From the sequence record PQ327946.1: a stretch of DNA of 64,000 nt. One strand, 5' to 3'. This stretch comes from a phage. Below are positions 34,869-50,803 of the stretch, in pieces. The position numbers and the translations under genes were made by a program. The notes below the pieces were generated by a model that was not told the DNA's origin, ran no database searches, and saw only the letters and a list, made by a program, of their open reading frames with translations. How positions within the stretch are numbered: position 1 is the first letter of the stretch; each line of letters opens with the position of its first letter.

Positions 34869-35171
34869 TTAGATAGATGTAGGCTCTAATTTTATTTTCA
34901 TGAACTCGGCAAATTGTCTGGCAGTTTTTATGCCTTGTTCATGACATTCAAATGCATCATCACAGGGGCTATTTTTGTAATGCTTTGCCATATACTTATA
35001 GAATTTTTCAGAATTCTCGACATTTTGAATTTCAAACAAAGTATATACGTTTTTAATCCCTGATTCCATAAAGTTATCAAAATATGGGTCGGTGTACGCA
35101 GTACCAACGTTAGGAGTTGTTGCTGCAAAAAACCCCAGCATCGCCATGACAGCTATCGCTCTTAAGGCCAT
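34869..35171 (-). CDS. Secreted small protein
   Basis: 100 aa; N-terminal signal-peptide-like hydrophobic segment. Confidence 0.5.
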   Translation of the reverse strand: MALRAIAVMAMLGFFAATTPNVGTAYTDPYFDNFMESGIKNVYTLFEIQNVENSEKFYKYMAKHYKNSPCDDAFECHEQGIKTARQFAEFMKIKLEPTSI

Positions 35172-35183
35172 ATAGGCCTCCTG

Positions 35184-35396
35184 TTAATTTTGGCCAGTAT
35201 TTATTTTTCGCCTTTGGACGGCCTTAACATCTGTGAGGTATTTTTCCAGCTTGCGCTTGCGTGTATAATCAGCTTTAGAACCAGTTTGACGGATATCCTC
35301 GTTTAAATGAGAAATAGAATGTCCTATTTCTCTTCGGATTTCATCCAATTGGGTTACAGTAAGATTACGAAGTTGTCTTTCGTTTAATTGCTGCAT
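35184..35396 (-). CDS. Hypothetical small protein
   Basis: 70 aa ORF. Confidence 0.4.
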
Positions 35397-35420
35397 ATAT
35401 ACCTCTTGGTTAGATATTAG

Positions 35421-35428
35421 TATTTATA
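35421..35428 (-). promoter_or_regulatory. Late promoter-like TATAAATA
   Basis: Exact TATAAATA on minus strand about 25 nt upstream of ATG 35396. Confidence 0.4.
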
Positions 35429-36005
35429 ACAACCCTGTCAAATCATTCCAATGCTTCCGGCATAATGACACATATCTATCGGTATCACCAATTTCAATTT
35501 GACTGCCATCTGTAATTGGAAGTCCGTCTTCCGTGACTCTAGCTACCATTGTGGCCTTTTTACCACAATGACAGACACCTTTAAGTTCAACAAGCTTATC
35601 GGCAATAGCCATTAATGCTTGAGAACCTTCAAATAGATTACCTTTAAAATCTGTTCGTAGTCCATATGCCATTACCGGCACATTGTATACGTCAACAATA
35701 CGACTAAGTTGATACACCTTTTCAGTAGTTAAGAACTGAGCTTCGTCAACAAATACACAATGAATATCCTTTTGTGCTGCAGCCCATTTATAGAATTCAA
35801 AGATATCCATGTCTTTTGTAATTATATTGGCATCCTGACGAATACCAATACGAGAGACTATTTCACCTTTTGAATCACGAGTATCAATAGCCGGTTTAAG
35901 AACTAATACACCCATGCCACGTTCTTTATAGTTGTGTGCGGCTGTAAGTAATGAAGCAGACTTACCAGCGTTCATAGCGGCGTATGTAAAAATTAAACTC
36001 GCCAT
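35424..36005 (-). CDS. tk: Thymidine kinase
   Basis: 193 aa; P-loop AMNAGKS; zinc ribbon CHCGKKA. Confidence 0.9.
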   Translation of the reverse strand: MASLIFTYAAMNAGKSASLLTAAHNYKERGMGVLVLKPAIDTRDSKGEIVSRIGIRQDANIITKDMDIFEFYKWAAAQKDIHCVFVDEAQFLTTEKVYQLSRIVDVYNVPVMAYGLRTDFKGNLFEGSQALMAIADKLVELKGVCHCGKKATMVARVTEDGLPITDGSQIEIGDTDRYVSLCRKHWNDLTGLL

Positions 36006-36006
36006 T

Positions 36007-36195
36007 TTAATCCTTAGTTAAATTTTCTAAATATGTTTTTAAATCATTTTCAGCTTTATCGATAGATTTTACTAATTCGTAATATGTTTCGGCATCTCCA
36101 TATTCAGAAGATATTTCAAAAGACAAATCCTTTTCTAAACTAATAATTTCACCAACTAAAAATAATATTTCGTTCTTTTGTTCGCGAGTAATCAT
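36007..36195 (-). CDS. Small protein, paralog pair member
   Basis: 62 aa; similar spacing of EQK ... EY.EL.K to neighbour. Confidence 0.4.
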   Translation of the reverse strand: MITREQKNEILFLVGEIISLEKDLSFEISSEYGDAETYYELVKSIDKAENDLKTYLENLTKD

Positions 36196-36383
36196 AAGGA
36201 ATTTATATAATTAATAAGTTCTTGTTCTTTATTATCGAATTCTTTAGAAAGTTCTTCGTACTCGTTTGCACTAAAAGGACCGCATTCATTACAAACTTTT
36301 TCCAATTCACTATTTTTATCCATAACTTCGTGGATAAGAGAAAAGAGTTTGTCTTTTTGTTCTTTACTTAAACTCATAACCAT
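36192..36383 (-). CDS. Small protein, paralog pair member
   Basis: 63 aa ORF. Confidence 0.4.
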   Translation of the reverse strand: MVMSLSKEQKDKLFSLIHEVMDKNSELEKVCNECGPFSANEYEELSKEFDNKEQELINYINSL

Positions 36384-36601
36384 GTCACCTTTAAGCAGTA
36401 TTCTTCTACATGCTGTTTACGACCTTTCTTATCAATAAAGGTATATTCAACGAATGTTCCGATGTAGTCTTTATCTACATCATGTGGACTATTAATTGGA
36501 CATTTGGTACGACAAATGCGTTCCCATTGACGAATAATTACTACCTTATTCTTTGGGTCATATGGATGTGGATAATGTATATTCATAATAACGGTTCCCA
36601 A
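36374..36601 (-). CDS. Hypothetical small protein
   Basis: 75 aa ORF. Confidence 0.4.
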   Translation of the reverse strand: MGTVIMNIHYPHPYDPKNKVVIIRQWERICRTKCPINSPHDVDKDYIGTFVEYTFIDKKGRKQHVEEYCLKVTWL

Positions 36602-37080
36602 TCAACAATCACAATTTCTAGTTTAGTGGAATACGTATCTAAAATCTCTTCGATGACATCCCAGTTTCCACCACCGATACCTGCACCAATTCTTGGCATA
36701 TAAATTACAGGCTTTGTTATCTTATTCTTTCCGAATTCATTTAATTCTATTATACAATTCATTAAAGCAGAGTACTCAAAATTAGGTCCCGGCTCAAACT
36801 GCGTATAAAGATTAAAGCAATAAGCTTTATGGGTCTTAAAATATTTTTCATAAACTGAATAAGTCCCGAGTTTAGACTCGTCTCCGAATTCGGTTTGAAG
36901 TTTATCGGCTTCTAAAATTTTTGGATAAGCCTTTGCTAATTGGCCTGCTACACCGGCGCCCATTGTATGAAAACAATTACACCCATGAGCAATATTATTA
37001 CCTTTAGAAAACAGGGCGACAATATCGCCCTTGATATAGTTTTTAATCACTTGCTGCAAGTCCTCTATTATAAGAGTCAA
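36583..37080 (-). CDS. Macro-domain (ADP-ribose binding/processing) protein
   Basis: 165 aa; glycine-rich MGAGVAG and IGAGIGGG segments in macro-domain arrangement. Confidence 0.6.
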   Translation of the reverse strand: MTLIIEDLQQVIKNYIKGDIVALFSKGNNIAHGCNCFHTMGAGVAGQLAKAYPKILEADKLQTEFGDESKLGTYSVYEKYFKTHKAYCFNLYTQFEPGPNFEYSALMNCIIELNEFGKNKITKPVIYMPRIGAGIGGGNWDVIEEILDTYSTKLEIVIVDWEPLL

Positions 37081-37390
37081 CTAGACGGTCCACCATAGAA
37101 TTGCATGCTGCTTTATCTTTAGGTTCCGCCACCGAGCATTCTAATATTTGCCATTTTTTATAGTATCTTTTAATTAAGGTAGACGCCTTGAACCTACTAG
37201 ACGCCCCATCTTTTTCTCCGTCTTTATACGCATATAACAATTTTTGTGAAAAATCTACTTTACACTCTTGACTTTGACCACAATAATCAGATGCCGTTCT
37301 GTTTGTATACTCCGTTACATCAGTATATGTAGTATTAGCAAGAGCGTTAAATGAAACCAAGCCAACTATTAAAGCCAACATTTTGGTCAT
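37043..37390 (-). CDS. Secreted/periplasmic protein
   Basis: 115 aa; signal-peptide-like N-terminus. Confidence 0.5.
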   Translation of the reverse strand: MTKMLALIVGLVSFNALANTTYTDVTEYTNRTASDYCGQSQECKVDFSQKLLYAYKDGEKDGASSRFKASTLIKRYYKKWQILECSVAEPKDKAACNSMVDRLVDSYNRGLAASD

Positions 37391-37929
37391 TCTTTTATTT
37401 CCAGTAGTTTGTTTGATTTAAGGTAATTAGCCTTTTCTAGGACTTCAGAAGCATATTTACTTCCAGCACTCGTCTTCCATCCCGCATTATATGAGGATAT
37501 AGCTTTTCTTATATCCCCGTTATGTATATTTAACCAATAAGAAAATTCGATATAAGCCCATCTGGCTGAATTAGACCGCTTAGATAGCATTTTCTTAATT
37601 TGGGCATCAGACATATTATAACCAAGCCGGTTAATTCTTGCCCTCATTGTTGGTAGATAATTTTGGAACATTCCATACGCATGGTGACCTTTCTTATCTT
37701 TAAGATTAATACCAGCAGATGATTCCTGCCATAGTATTGCGGCCATTATGTATCCAAGTCCTTTCTTATGCATATTTTCATGCGTTTTAAATTTTCCATC
37801 CTTAGAAAACTGTTCCCCAAACTGATAAGCATAATTCAAGTTATCGAGTTGGACATTACTAAAAGTATGCTCGGAGCTATGTGCTGATAACGAAAGAGCA
37901 AATAGACCAGCGAGTAGTGCTTTTCTCAT
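37387..37929 (-). CDS. Secreted lytic transglycosylase-like protein
   Basis: 180 aa; signal peptide; WQESSAG ... GMFQ ... YNAGW resembles SLT-domain motifs. Confidence 0.5.
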   Translation of the reverse strand: MRKALLAGLFALSLSAHSSEHTFSNVQLDNLNYAYQFGEQFSKDGKFKTHENMHKKGLGYIMAAILWQESSAGINLKDKKGHHAYGMFQNYLPTMRARINRLGYNMSDAQIKKMLSKRSNSARWAYIEFSYWLNIHNGDIRKAISSYNAGWKTSAGSKYASEVLEKANYLKSNKLLEIKE

Positions 37930-37937
37930 GTTTACCT

Positions 37938-38396
37938 CTAGATTTTAATCACTGCTTTAGAAGCTTTTCCTGGTAGTCGTTTACTGTTAATAATAGCCAT
38001 TCTACATTGAAGAGTCTTCATTTTGAATGCTGGATTTTCGCGACAAACTGTAAGTCCTAGCCAAAGATTTCCATCAGTTATTTCTAAACGGCCTGGACGA
38101 TATTCGACACCTTCGACAAAATCTTCATCAACATCTGGACGTGCCGGCATTGATAAAAATTCTGCAACTTCTTTAACATGATTTTTTACTTTACGAAATA
38201 ATTCAAAAACGTAGTTCTCATCTATTTCTCTCTGGATAGCACGATCTAAGAGATGTTGAGAATACTTGATATGAAAGCCTGGTAGTCCAAGAGACTTTGC
38301 AGCATCTTTTATACCGGCATTTATTTTGCGGAACTCCGTTTCAAAGATTCGACGGAGTTTATTACGGCGGATAAAAACGTCAGAATTGATAGTCAT
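37938..38396 (-). CDS. regB: Endoribonuclease RegB
   Basis: 152 aa; sequence closely resembles T4 RegB as I recall it. Confidence 0.85.
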   Translation of the reverse strand: MTINSDVFIRRNKLRRIFETEFRKINAGIKDAAKSLGLPGFHIKYSQHLLDRAIQREIDENYVFELFRKVKNHVKEVAEFLSMPARPDVDEDFVEGVEYRPGRLEITDGNLWLGLTVCRENPAFKMKTLQCRMAIINSKRLPGKASKAVIKI

Positions 38397-38404
38397 TTTT
38401 GATT

Positions 38405-38454
38405 TCTCCTCTAGTTGACAGGTCTATAGTAACACAACTAGAGGAGAAGTAAAC
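38405..38454 (-). promoter_or_regulatory. Early promoter GTTTAC-N17-TACTAT inside a 13-bp inverted repeat; SD-sequestering hairpin for regB
   Basis: Arms TCTCCTCTAGTTG (38405..38417) and CAACTAGAGGAGA (38435..38447) flank the -10. Confidence 0.55.
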
Positions 38455-38753
38455 TACTCTTTGAAAGGAATTAACTTTTTAACTGCTTTAGATACTTCGT
38501 CACGAACCTGGTGGAAGTTCTTGAGCTGTTCAAGGCGTTGTTCGTAATACGCAATCTCATCTTCTTCAAGACAATCGTCAGCGTCTTCTTTCAGATATGC
38601 CTTGTACTCATTAAAGAGGGCCCATAGGCGATTCTCAAAGTCATCAAGGCTTTGAATTTTCTTGTGCTTCGGAACAAGGCCAAAAGGATTGCTTTCAGTT
38701 ATGCGTCGAGATGCTTCATAATGAGTTCCAAAGCCTGATAGGATTTGAGCCAT
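38454..38753 (-). CDS. Hypothetical protein
   Basis: ATG at 38753 overlapping upstream stop. Confidence 0.4.
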
Positions 38754-39019
38754 TAGTATTTTTCCTCTGGTCGAAATACCGCACGGCATGCCCACATGCT
38801 GGCTTCTTTTAGATGTTGCTTAGCATACTTAAGAGCCTGCACTGCATCCATATCTTCTTTGGTTTGTTGCTCTGATTCATTTTCTTTCAAGATATATGCT
38901 TCTTCAATCAGAGCATCAAACATCAATCCAAGACGGACTTCTGCGTCTTTAATAGCGTTCACTTTACTGATTTTATCATCGGTATGTGGCTTGTAGCCTT
39001 TGATGTCTTCAATCGACAT
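38753..39019 (-). CDS. Hypothetical protein
   Basis: ATG at 39019 with SD GAGGAAA. Confidence 0.4.
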
Positions 39020-39233
39020 AAGGAATTTCCTCATCGGTGGCAAGGTCATATTCAACCAATTGGATAGGCTCATTAATACCATATCCGCGTACAGTGATAT
39101 CAGTTGTCGGATATTTTCCAGTAATATCACCCGTTCTAAATGCTTCAATGAATGATTGCTCGCCTGAGCAACTAAACCAGGCGGCAAAACATTTTAAAAC
39201 ATCTTCAGACCCTTCTATAATCAATTTAGCCAT
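39009..39233 (-). CDS. Hypothetical small protein
   Basis: 74 aa ORF. Confidence 0.4.
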   Translation of the reverse strand: MAKLIIEGSEDVLKCFAAWFSCSGEQSFIEAFRTGDITGKYPTTDITVRGYGINEPIQLVEYDLATDEEIPYVD

Positions 39234-39595
39234 TATAGACTCTCAGTAAAGGTACGAGCGATAACGTCGCGCTGCTGTTCCGGAGTCAGAGAGTTAAAGC
39301 GAACTGCATAACCGGATACACGGATGGTCAACTGCGGATATTTTTCCGGATGCTTAACTGCATCTTCCAGAGTTTCGCGACGCAGAACGTTAACGTTCAG
39401 GTGTTGACCACCTTCAATTTTAACTTTAGGTTGATGTTCAATTTCAATTTCACGGGCATTCAAACCGTAGAAAATTTCCGGGTCTACAATAGCGTCTTCT
39501 TTAAAAGTCTTAGAGACAATAATCCGGGCTTGAGTACCGTCTTCAAAATAAATAGTGCCTTTGTGTGTGCCTTCAAGAATTTGATATGCTTTCAT
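39233..39595 (-). CDS. Autonomous glycyl radical cofactor-like protein (GrcA/YfiD-like)
   Basis: 120 aa; C-terminal RVSGYAVRF glycine radical motif. Confidence 0.65.
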
Positions 39596-39601
39596 ATAAC
39601 C

Positions 39602-39910
39602 TCAATTAGAAAATAAATTTATCCAAGATTTTTCTTTAATCAAAAATGGGTCGGAATTAAACGCCATTAAACTTTGAGTGATTAATCCCTTAAATGGCCC
39701 ATCAATAAATTCCATTTTGAAATGCGGAATACTAGTCATCAACCGTGCATTAGGAGCAGTACAAAGAACCTGCTGACCTGCGAACGGACCTTTAGTCAAA
39801 CGATATCGTTTAGGTTTAAAATGGTAGATCTCGTAATTTTCTACAAGAGCCCTTTTATTGCATACTGGACTGTTATAACAATACTCAAAAACTTCAATAG
39901 TGGTCATCAT
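39602..39910 (-). CDS. Hypothetical protein
   Basis: ORF trimmed to ATG at 39910/39907. Confidence 0.4.
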   Translation of the reverse strand: MMTTIEVFEYCYNSPVCNKRALVENYEIYHFKPKRYRLTKGPFAGQQVLCTAPNARLMTSIPHFKMEFIDGPFKGLITQSLMAFNSDPFLIKEKSWINLFSN

Positions 39911-40446
39911 TGCATTCCAATCACAAAAAATTGAGGACGAGCAGTACCGCCTATGCAATATTTGCTTTTGCAGCAGTGCTGTACTGATTTAATATGGACA
40001 TTGTAAATCTTATCCATATCAGGAGCTTTAATAGGCTCGTCAATTATGTATAGAATACGAGAAAGCGTTAATCCACGGAATTTAGAACCTTCATTGCCAA
40101 TAAAACTACGGACAGAATCAGTAAATAAACGGAATCGAATATCATCGCTAGAATAACGAGAAAATTCTTTTTTAATGTTGCCAGCAGAAATTTTAGCATA
40201 AGCTGAAGTATTAGAAAGAACAATAACTGTTCCATCGTCGTGCAGCCAATTAGCAGCAAAATTAGTTACTGCAGTGGATTTACCTGATTGTCTGCCACCG
40301 TCTAAACGAAGTGTACAGTACTGCTTGAGTATGTCTTCAAATGGTGGGACATAACCGTTCTTACAAATTTCTTCTACTCTAGCATCAGAATGGTGTGTAA
40401 AAGCATTCATCAGGGATAGATAAGGTCCAGTTAAAAATGTTTTCAT
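39907..40446 (-). CDS. P-loop ATPase
   Basis: Walker A GGRQSGKST and Walker B ILYIIDEP; start at 40446 or 40494. Confidence 0.5.
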   Translation of the reverse strand: MKTFLTGPYLSLMNAFTHHSDARVEEICKNGYVPPFEDILKQYCTLRLDGGRQSGKSTAVTNFAANWLHDDGTVIVLSNTSAYAKISAGNIKKEFSRYSSDDIRFRLFTDSVRSFIGNEGSKFRGLTLSRILYIIDEPIKAPDMDKIYNVHIKSVQHCCKSKYCIGGTARPQFFVIGMQ

Positions 40447-40718
40447 TTTGTTCTCTCTAAGTTTGGGCCATTCCATGGCACATGAATTGTCCATTTCTGT
40501 ATTTACCCATTACCGCACTTGGGCTCGACCTTATTACAGGTTGGCGGGAATCCCTCATAGAATCATGAGGTCCAGCTTGTTCCCATGTTATTTGAATGTA
40601 AATATTTTTGCCTTAATACTTATACCAGTGTGGCTTCATTAAAATTTTTTCATCGAGTCATTTTACCTCTCCAAGTAATTATGATTATACTATCACAATT
40701 CTAGGAGAAAGTAAACTG

Positions 40719-42385: not shown

Positions 42386-42844
42386 TTATAGGATGGTAGT
42401 GAGCACCTTATATAATGATTTGCCCATTACATATTCCCATTGAGAAGGTTTAATTAAAGCGAATGCATCAAATTCAGGAATCTGTCGTCCGTCTGGGAAT
42501 GTATGATAGGAATTACAAACACTGTTTCTGAATTGCTCGTGCTCTACAGGGATGGTATATAGGAACAGATGAATATTCTTATTGTCTGAGTAATGATGTT
42601 CACCTAGGTCTTTCAGGAAGGCAGGGTCATATTGTGTAAACCCAGTTTCTTCTTCGCATTCACGAATAGCGGCTTCGATAGGAGATTCACCGGGCTCGAC
42701 ACGACCTTTAGGAATATCCCACCGATGAGCTAAAGAACCTTTAGGACGAGAACCAGTTACACGCCCCATGAATAACTCTTTATCTTTTGTCATGAAGATA
42801 ATACCGGCTGATAGTTCTTTCACTTTATTTTTCTTACTCATCAT
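42386..42844 (-). CDS. nudE: Nudix hydrolase
   Basis: 152 aa; Nudix box GRVEPGESPIEAAIRECEEETG. Confidence 0.8.
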   Translation of the reverse strand: MMSKKNKVKELSAGIIFMTKDKELFMGRVTGSRPKGSLAHRWDIPKGRVEPGESPIEAAIRECEEETGFTQYDPAFLKDLGEHHYSDNKNIHLFLYTIPVEHEQFRNSVCNSYHTFPDGRQIPEFDAFALIKPSQWEYVMGKSLYKVLTTIL

Positions 42845-49971: not shown

Positions 49972-50024
49972 TATGCCTTGCGGCAACCTTGTCGGGGTTC
50001 CACCTGCTAAGGCAAGTGTTTGTA

Positions 50025-50048
50025 CGAAACGCCGGGATTCGAACCCGG
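50025..50048 (-). other. tRNA-like T-arm/acceptor remnant
   Basis: Minus strand CCGGG-TTCGAAT-CCCGG; no convincing D or anticodon arm found by hand. Confidence 0.3.
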
Positions 50049-50283
50049 TTATTAAGCAGTTGACACTACTCAATATTTTTAAAAGGCCATATCTCGACCA
50101 TATCCGAACGTTCCGTCAAAAACGCTACTCGGCTTACGGCAAAGATATTTCCTCGAATCGATAATTCTGTGCGCCGTTTCTGCTGTGATGTAAGGGGATA
50201 TTAACGAATCATAAAGATTTATTAAGACCAGTCCTTACACAGGGAACATCAGTCCGACGACTTGCCGGTAGCGACCCGGCTTC

Positions 50284-50646: not shown

Positions 50647-50723
<77 letters not shown>

Positions 50724-50729
50724 AATATA

Positions 50730-50803
50730 TGACCCAGACCAGATTCGAACTGGTAACCTTTCCCTTATGAGGGGACTGCTGCTAACCATTGAGCTACAGG
50801 GCC
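50730..50803 (-). tRNA. tRNA with anticodon CAU (Met or lysidine-Ile), non-canonical D arm
   Basis: Acceptor GGCCCTG/CTGGGTC, T arm ACCAG-TTCGAAT-CTGGT, loop CTCATAA; 6 nt downstream of tRNA-Arg. Confidence 0.6.

Follow-up and report, generated by a model that had tools for sequence, protein, structure and literature searches.

In the HIDEN-SEQ screen of a T4 transposon library on a DarTG2 host, tk.4 was the single significant hit, and T4 became sensitised to DarTG2 when the gene was cleanly deleted; the gene, which was dispensable on plain E. coli K-12, was renamed adfM, for anti-DarT factor Macrodomain (bioRxiv 10.1101/2025.11.20.689424). Enzymatic removal of ADP-ribose by Tk.4 was described there only as something that 'seems likely' (10.1101/2025.11.20.689424). 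A further anti-DarTG2 factor was to be expected, since T2 and T4 without the NADAR enzyme AdfN stay DarTG2-resistant (PMC11825919). Another phage macrodomain that bears the name AdfM, PhiKZ gp104, removes ADP-ribose in vitro from DarT2-modified DNA (PMC13309987), and the cellular macrodomain SCO6735 cleaves DarT-made thymidine-linked ADP-ribose off DNA and protects against DarT (PMC9411070). The gene analysed here, tk.4 of a phage DNA of 64,000 nucleotides (PQ327946.1; this whole stretch is called the window), lies on the minus strand at 36583..37050. Its product is a stand-alone macrodomain of the ALC1/TARG1-like class, not a MacroD, PARG or viral Mac1 domain, and it probably acts in counter-defence with a Gln-type active site.

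Orthology, fold and class

The window gene is the syntenic Mosigvirus ortholog of T4 tk.4 (adfM). Its product was identical to T4 Tk.4 (NP_049723) at 131 of 155 positions (85%) in a gapless alignment (E = 7e-105), and the two genes have in common vs upstream and tk.3 downstream, the overlapping junctions and all active-site residues. They differ in genus (Tequatrovirus for T4, Mosigvirus for the window), in start codon (ATG in T4, GTG in the window) and at position 127 in loop 2, which is Lys in T4 and Gly, the family consensus, in the window. The window phage is a Mosigvirus, an RB69/HX01-like T-even phage, and the 3-kb stretch around tk.4 was 97-99% identical to the Mosigvirus phages PNJ-9, PNJ-6, HX01, moskry and SHSML-52-1. 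To this genus belong the RB69-like T-even phages that infect E. coli and Shigella.

The Pfam profile Macro (PF01661) was matched with 28.1 bits (gathering threshold 22; E = 2.2e-6) over profile positions 2-117 of 118, so that 116 of 118 were covered, and PHROG 335, which is labelled 'phosphatase', was matched with E = 8e-67. Sequence matches to solved macrodomains were obtained for BT1257 (6e-11), Poa1p (1.5e-8), and TARG1 and DarG (~1e-3). An AlphaFold2 model, for which 53 homologs served as input (mean predicted local distance difference test score, pLDDT, 95.8; predicted template modelling score 0.91), contained six strands alternating with helices. Foldseek searches of the PDB with this model returned TARG1 (E 3e-10), Poa1p (8e-10), BT1257, DarG and SCO6735, all with a probability of 1.00 and template modelling scores of ~0.7-0.8. 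The first-pass annotation, made from the letters of the window alone, had proposed a macro domain and had looked to structure prediction to decide; the AlphaFold2 model has the three-layer alpha/beta/alpha macro fold, and the above-threshold Pfam score, the pLDDT and the Foldseek probabilities confirm the proposal.

The class was read from searches of PDB sequences with the family profile, in which BT1257 (3e-17), TARG1 (2e-16), SCO6735 (2e-14) and M. tuberculosis DarG (1e-13) were found. The first 15 matches all belonged to the ALC1/TARG1-like class (E 3e-17 to 1e-6), with coronavirus Mac1 at 5e-4, and the Foldseek ranking agreed with this order, ALC1/TARG1-like relatives coming first. This class includes every thymine/uracil-N3 ADP-ribose hydrolase known so far, namely TARG1, DarG and SCO6735, and these three are also the only enzymes found to act on the N3-uracil mark, the chemical equivalent of the thymine one (PMC13036486).

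Active-site residues and conservation

The residues discussed below were located in the window as follows.

36973..36987, minus strand: H22-G-C-N25-C26, where strand 2 ends, with N25 as the Asn conserved in macrodomains
36943..36963, minus strand: Gly-rich loop 1, MGAGVAG, residues 30-36; predicted phosphate-binding loop
36799..36813, minus strand: N80-L-Y-T-Q84; Q84 at the catalytic-Lys position of TARG1 K84 and DarG K80
36661..36696, minus strand: Gly-rich loop 2, PRIGAGIGGGNW, residues 119-130; G122 and G124 are the counterparts of G126 and G128 in SCO6735

The glycine-rich motifs on which the macro domain had originally been proposed coincide with the two predicted ADP-ribose-binding loops, MGAGVAG and PRIGAGIGGGNW. 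N25 is equivalent to N27 of SCO6735 and N23 of PhiKZ AdfM, and N25 and C26 were both present in 142/142 distant representatives and in 119/120 closer homologs. G33 and A35 were invariant in the family, and G31 and G33 were invariant across the aligned macrodomain references too. Q84 was found in 262/262 relatives, comprising 120/120 homologs from the first search and 142/142 further representatives at 29-46% identity, and among the relatives checked G122 and G124 were about as conserved as Q84. Specific to the clade are the (near-)invariant Cys26, the invariant Tyr82 and the nearly invariant Thr83; SCO6735 and BT1257 have Ile and Gly at the positions of Tyr82 and Thr83.

In hhalign alignments of the family profile, Q84 stood opposite K84 of TARG1 (probability 98.3%) and opposite Q85 of SCO6735 (probability 98.2%), with Ser at this position in Poa1p. 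The register was taken from profile-profile alignments and a 127-sequence alignment, which were mutually consistent, and was preferred because it agrees with the published structure-based alignment, in which one SCO6735 loop is five residues longer. Two other alignments were discarded: one of 8 sequences made with MAFFT, in which the central strand of SCO6735, BT1257 and Poa1p was mis-registered, and an ungapped HMMER pairwise alignment, in which the Gln of BT1257 was set six residues before Q84. Judged from its sequence, Tk.4 of the window is not of the DarG type, having an invariant Gln at the catalytic-Lys position, as in SCO6735.

The roles of the corresponding residues have been studied in SCO6735, where Q85A is inactive, N27S nearly inactive and G128E weakened, and where Lys89 on a mobile loop contributes to the DNA activity; in the mechanism proposed for that enzyme, a backbone-positioned water starts the reaction and the Gln holds the distal ribose (PMC9411070). 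The N23A variant of the PhiKZ protein has lower activity (PMC13309987). Phage macrodomains are not mentioned in the CmdTAC paper.

Comparison with described macrodomains

Streptomyces coelicolor SCO6735 (PDB 5E3B) and Bacteroides BT1257 (2FG1/2AFC) resemble Tk.4 in the Gln at the catalytic-Lys position, the locking Asn, the H-x-C-N motif and the loop 2 pattern P-R-I-G-x-G-x-(A/G)-G-G-x-W, and BT1257 was the best PDB sequence match; they are, however, cellular proteins with only 23-31% identity to Tk.4 of the window. DarG (M. tuberculosis 5M3I, T. aquaticus 5M31/5M3E) has the same fold class, the conserved Asn and two Gly loops, and acts on the lesion against which the T4 ortholog protects, but its identity to Tk.4 is 22-24% and K80 of its F-P-T-K motif is replaced by Gln84 of N-L-Y-T-Q. 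Only the macro part of DarG was matched, its C-terminal DarT-binding domain having no counterpart in the 155 residues of Tk.4. The DarG equivalog model NF048014 of NCBIfam gave 31.9 bits against a cut-off of 250 (profile positions 4-146 of 338), and the PADLOC DarG model gave 33.2 bits (positions 4-145 of 329), compared with 133 for PhiKZ gp104 and 264 for M. tuberculosis DarG. A strict DarG homolog was ruled out by these scores and by the lack of the DarT-binding domain, of the catalytic Lys and of an adjacent darT.

PhiKZ gp104, too, is a phage protein made up of a macrodomain alone, and it protects against DarTG2, but it is imported into the phage nucleus (PMC13309987), is Lys-type with an F-P-T-K motif and is 20% identical to Tk.4 of the window. 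T4 Tk.4 and PhiKZ gp104, only 20% identical, appear to be two independent recruitments under the one name AdfM. T-even AdfM groups with SCO6735, and not with DarG or PhiKZ AdfM, because it has Gln and not Lys at the catalytic position. Human TARG1/OARD1 (4J5R), the best Foldseek match, also has His at position 22 but carries a K84/D125 dyad where the window protein has Q84 and G126. Yeast Poa1p (6LFQ), the second-best Foldseek match, whose active site involves the region of H23, S30 and F152, has the HxCNC motif and His22 in common with Tk.4 but differs in the Ser at the position of Q84 and in a large insertion before loop 2, at 25% identity.

Proposed function and alternative explanations

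The best explanation, which we regard as probable, is that Tk.4 is a counter-defence protein, a Gln-type thymine-ADP-ribose DNA glycohydrolase that undoes DarT2 marks. DarT2, the toxin of the bacterial DarTG2 defence, ADP-ribosylates thymine N3 in single-stranded phage DNA and so blocks replication; Tk.4 would grip the ADP-ribose by its two Gly-rich loops and cut the N-glycosidic bond, restoring the base. In a SCO6735-like active site, Gln84, held by Asn25, would replace the catalytic Lys and position the distal ribose while a backbone-held water starts the reaction. By analogy, the window protein may be expected to perform SCO6735-type chemistry. This explanation joins the fold, class, orthology, synteny, active-site residues and family conservation established here with the DarTG2 phenotype and the SCO6735 chemistry reported by others. 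That the protein counters DarT-type defence had been suggested in the first-pass annotation, and the suggestion is supported by genetics on the ortholog T4 tk.4, the knock-out of which is sensitised to DarTG2.

Several points weigh against such an enzyme. The searchable literature contained no biochemical assay of any T-even Tk.4, and the DarTG2 phenotype comes from a preprint and was seen with T4, a phage of another genus, not with the allele of this phage. SCO6735 itself also acts on protein and uracil-RNA substrates, and DNA is perhaps not the sole target. The window protein is without the five-residue-longer loop that bears Lys89 in SCO6735 (an hhalign gap opposite 'GMKTG'), and where the clade has C26, SCO6735 and BT1257 have Asp; details of the chemistry could therefore be different.

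It has also to be considered that Tk.4 mainly reverses ADP-ribosylation of protein or RNA, either the phage's own Alt, ModA and ModB marks or those of other ADP-ribosylating defences, which appears unlikely. T-even phages encode several ADP-ribosyltransferases, and the spread of the family (2,800 phage records; 1,185 representatives at E<=1e-30) goes beyond that expected for one defence system. TARG1 and SCO6735, the nearest characterised enzymes, also de-modify Glu/Asp-linked proteins (PMC9411070) and cleave uracil-linked ADP-ribose on RNA (PMC9411070; PMC13036486). On the other hand, T4 tk.4 has shown no phenotype other than a DarTG2-specific one and is dispensable on E. coli K-12, and the locus offers neither an operon link to a transferase nor, within 20 kb on either side in HX01, an annotated transferase. 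A role on protein or RNA, such as the tuning of the phage's own ADP-ribosyltransferases that the first-pass annotation had also suggested, could, moreover, coexist with the DNA role instead of replacing it. Non-catalytic blocking of DarT2, by binding of the toxin or by shielding of ADP-ribosylated sites, would suit a protein without the canonical catalytic Lys, and the dead variants Q85A of SCO6735, K80A of DarG and K84A of TARG1 keep the ability to inhibit DarT in vitro through interaction (PMC9411070). Such a reader or inhibitor is nevertheless quite improbable here, as the DarT-binding C-terminal domain of DarG has no counterpart (the match ends at ~146 of 329 or 338 positions) and the catalytic residues of SCO6735 (Asn, Gln and two Gly) are kept down to 29% identity, which fits selection on an active site.

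The legacy annotation 'phosphatase / A1pp motif', found in the T4 record and in PHROG 335, would make Tk.4 a Poa1p-like ADP-ribose-1''-phosphate (Appr-1''-p) phosphatase processing the by-product of RNA 2'-phosphotransferase reactions, and Poa1p was indeed among the top structural and sequence matches, with the H-x-C-N-C motif in common. However, the Ser and the insertion of Poa1p set it apart from a family with an invariant Gln84, the label is older than any test and has domain similarity as its sole basis, and a phosphatase would leave the DarTG2 phenotype unexplained. We know, furthermore, of no source of Appr-1''-p in T4 infection, and a phosphatase role is very hard to credit.

For the T-even Tk.4/AdfM clade it is possible, if somewhat short of an even chance, that it is no 'orphan DarG' but an independently recruited Gln-type macrodomain with an invariant signature of its own, H-G-C-N-C...N-x-Y-T-Q, which would remove thymine-linked ADP-ribose by lysine-independent water activation or by a variant that uses Cys26, and maybe on wider substrates (uracil-RNA or protein marks). 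If this is true, phages have solved DarT2 at least twice with chemically different erasers, one of the Tk.4 type and one of the PhiKZ gp104 type. The anti-DarTG2 role of the T4 ortholog is already known, and the gene is annotated in near-identical genomes and very widespread; as a discovery it has little value, hundreds of T-even genomes carrying the label 'macro domain protein' or 'phosphatase'. The legacy name 'phosphatase' should become 'AdfM-like macrodomain, anti-DarT2'. What goes beyond the preprint is the Gln-type active site, which sets T-even AdfM apart from DarG and PhiKZ AdfM, and the residual novelty is small. This site bears on the classification of phage anti-DarT factors and affects the design of inhibitors and mutants, there being no Lys equivalent to DarG K80; the informative residues are Q84 and N25.

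Distribution of the family

Homologs of Tk.4 were found in 2,800/50,697 phage records, in phages that infect Escherichia, Klebsiella, Salmonella, Pseudomonas, Vibrio, Acinetobacter and Aeromonas, and were named 'macro domain protein', 'phosphatase' or 'hypothetical protein' in the public records. When 1.84 billion cluster representatives were searched with the profile, 1,185 of them matched with E<=1e-30 and 8,778 with E<=1e-10. The single 'bacterial' match inspected for a neighbouring darT (P0112, from a Nitrospirae metagenome-assembled genome) lay on a short phage-like contig (L003) near an SLT gene, with no toxin gene on the contig.

In some distant members of the Tk.4 clade, the macrodomain was fused to other domains: Macro + NADAR + DUF4326 (P0254, 472 aa), DUF4326 + Macro (P0200, 302 aa) and Macro + NUDIX (P0247, 247 aa). 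In DarG1 and AdfN, NADAR is the domain that hydrolyses guanine-linked ADP-ribose on DNA (PMC11825919), and P0254 therefore unites the two known classes of DNA-ADP-ribose eraser domains, thymine-type and guanine-type. Fusions of this type support a DNA-eraser role through guilt by association, which is not proof. DUF4326 was a recurrent fusion partner in this clade.

Gene boundaries and start codon

The features on which the gene boundaries were decided are these.

36583..37050, minus strand: tk.4/adfM coding sequence from GTG to TGA, 155 aa, with a macro domain as its only domain
37051..37080, minus strand: 5' extension of the maximal open reading frame (TTG start, LTLIIEDLQQ); this DNA is the 3' end of vs
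37061..37065, minus strand: GAGGA resembling a Shine-Dalgarno sequence, 10 nt before the GTG, read from the sequence
36584..36586, minus strand: start ATG of tk.3 (DUF7202), overlapping the tk.4 TGA as ATGA

The maximal open reading frame runs on the minus strand from a TTG at 37080 to the TGA at 36583 and has 165 codons (36583-37080). The start of tk.4 is most likely not this TTG but the GTG at 37050, giving a gene of 36583-37050, because the ATG start of T4 tk.4 aligned exactly with this GTG and is directly preceded in T4, at the aligned position, by an in-frame TAG; because tk.4 is annotated as a 468-nt coding sequence in PNJ-6 and HX01, which are 98-99% identical phages; because alignments with other T-even homologs began only at residue 11 of the 165-aa frame; and because the GAGGA upstream of the GTG is kept in T4 and PNJ-6. 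The residues encoded by 37051..37080 are probably outside the Tk.4 protein. Of the gene coordinates first given, 36583-37080, the stop end stands and the reading frame exists; the start was that of the maximal frame and likely has to be moved to 37050.

Gene neighbourhood

Synteny was assessed by comparing the open reading frames of the window and their Pfam matches with the annotations of T4, PNJ-6 and HX01. The gene order regB, vs.1, vs, tk.4, tk.3, tk.2, tk.1, tk, rI.1, rI is that of T4. With an overlap of 8 nt between vs and tk.4 and the ATGA overlap between tk.4 and tk.3, the neighbouring genes are packed as a single translationally coupled string. The gene had been described as 'downstream of tk', which needs to be reversed: tk.4 lies to the right of tk in plus-strand coordinates but is transcriptionally upstream, all these genes being on the minus strand. 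Its place in the regB-vs-tk cluster suggests early expression; tk.4 does not appear in the main text of the time-resolved omics paper on T4. A promoter and terminator scan of 35000-40500 found 17 promoter-like sites, compared with 18.6 expected from shuffled sequence, which is uninformative, and no promoter was assigned. No transferase was found among the nine neighbouring genes scanned, nor is one annotated within 20 kb on either side in the near-identical HX01; no darT was found next to tk.4, the neighbours of which are vs and tk.3 (DUF7202).

A terminator-like hairpin on the minus strand at 37013-37031, AGGGCGATATTGTCGCCCT followed by GTTTTCT, has a stem of 8 bp, of which 5 are G-C pairs. 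It starts 19 nt into the tk.4 coding sequence, encodes the conserved KGDIVAL and is identical in T4 and PNJ-6, a conservation for which coding constraint may be explanation enough.

The macrodomain gene is separated from tk by tk.3 (36374-36586, minus strand; DUF7202) and the tandem paralogs tk.2 and tk.1 (36192-36383 and 36007-36195, minus strand), which overlap by 4 nt and matched DUF7438 (E 4e-19 and 7e-15, respectively). On the other side, the vs.1 homolog (37387-37929, minus strand) matched the SLT lytic transglycosylase domain only below threshold (19.6 bits, gathering threshold 21.3); on contig L003, which is phage-like and unrelated, the macro gene also has an SLT-domain gene nearby. 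Farther away, ARAGORN reported a 'tRNA-???' of 95 nt, the anticodon of which has four bases (ttta), at 50022-50116 on the minus strand, ~530 nt from a tRNA-Arg(tct)/tRNA-Met(cat) pair (50647-50803); the Rfam tRNA model supported the Arg and Met genes and not the 50022-50116 candidate. A NUDIX hydrolase gene (42386-42844, minus strand; Pfam NUDIX E = 5e-16) was located ~5.3 kb from tk.4, at a position matching that of the HX01 gene annotated 'nudix hydrolase'. As a speculation, given the Macro-NUDIX fusions seen elsewhere, its product could dispose of freed ADP-ribose.

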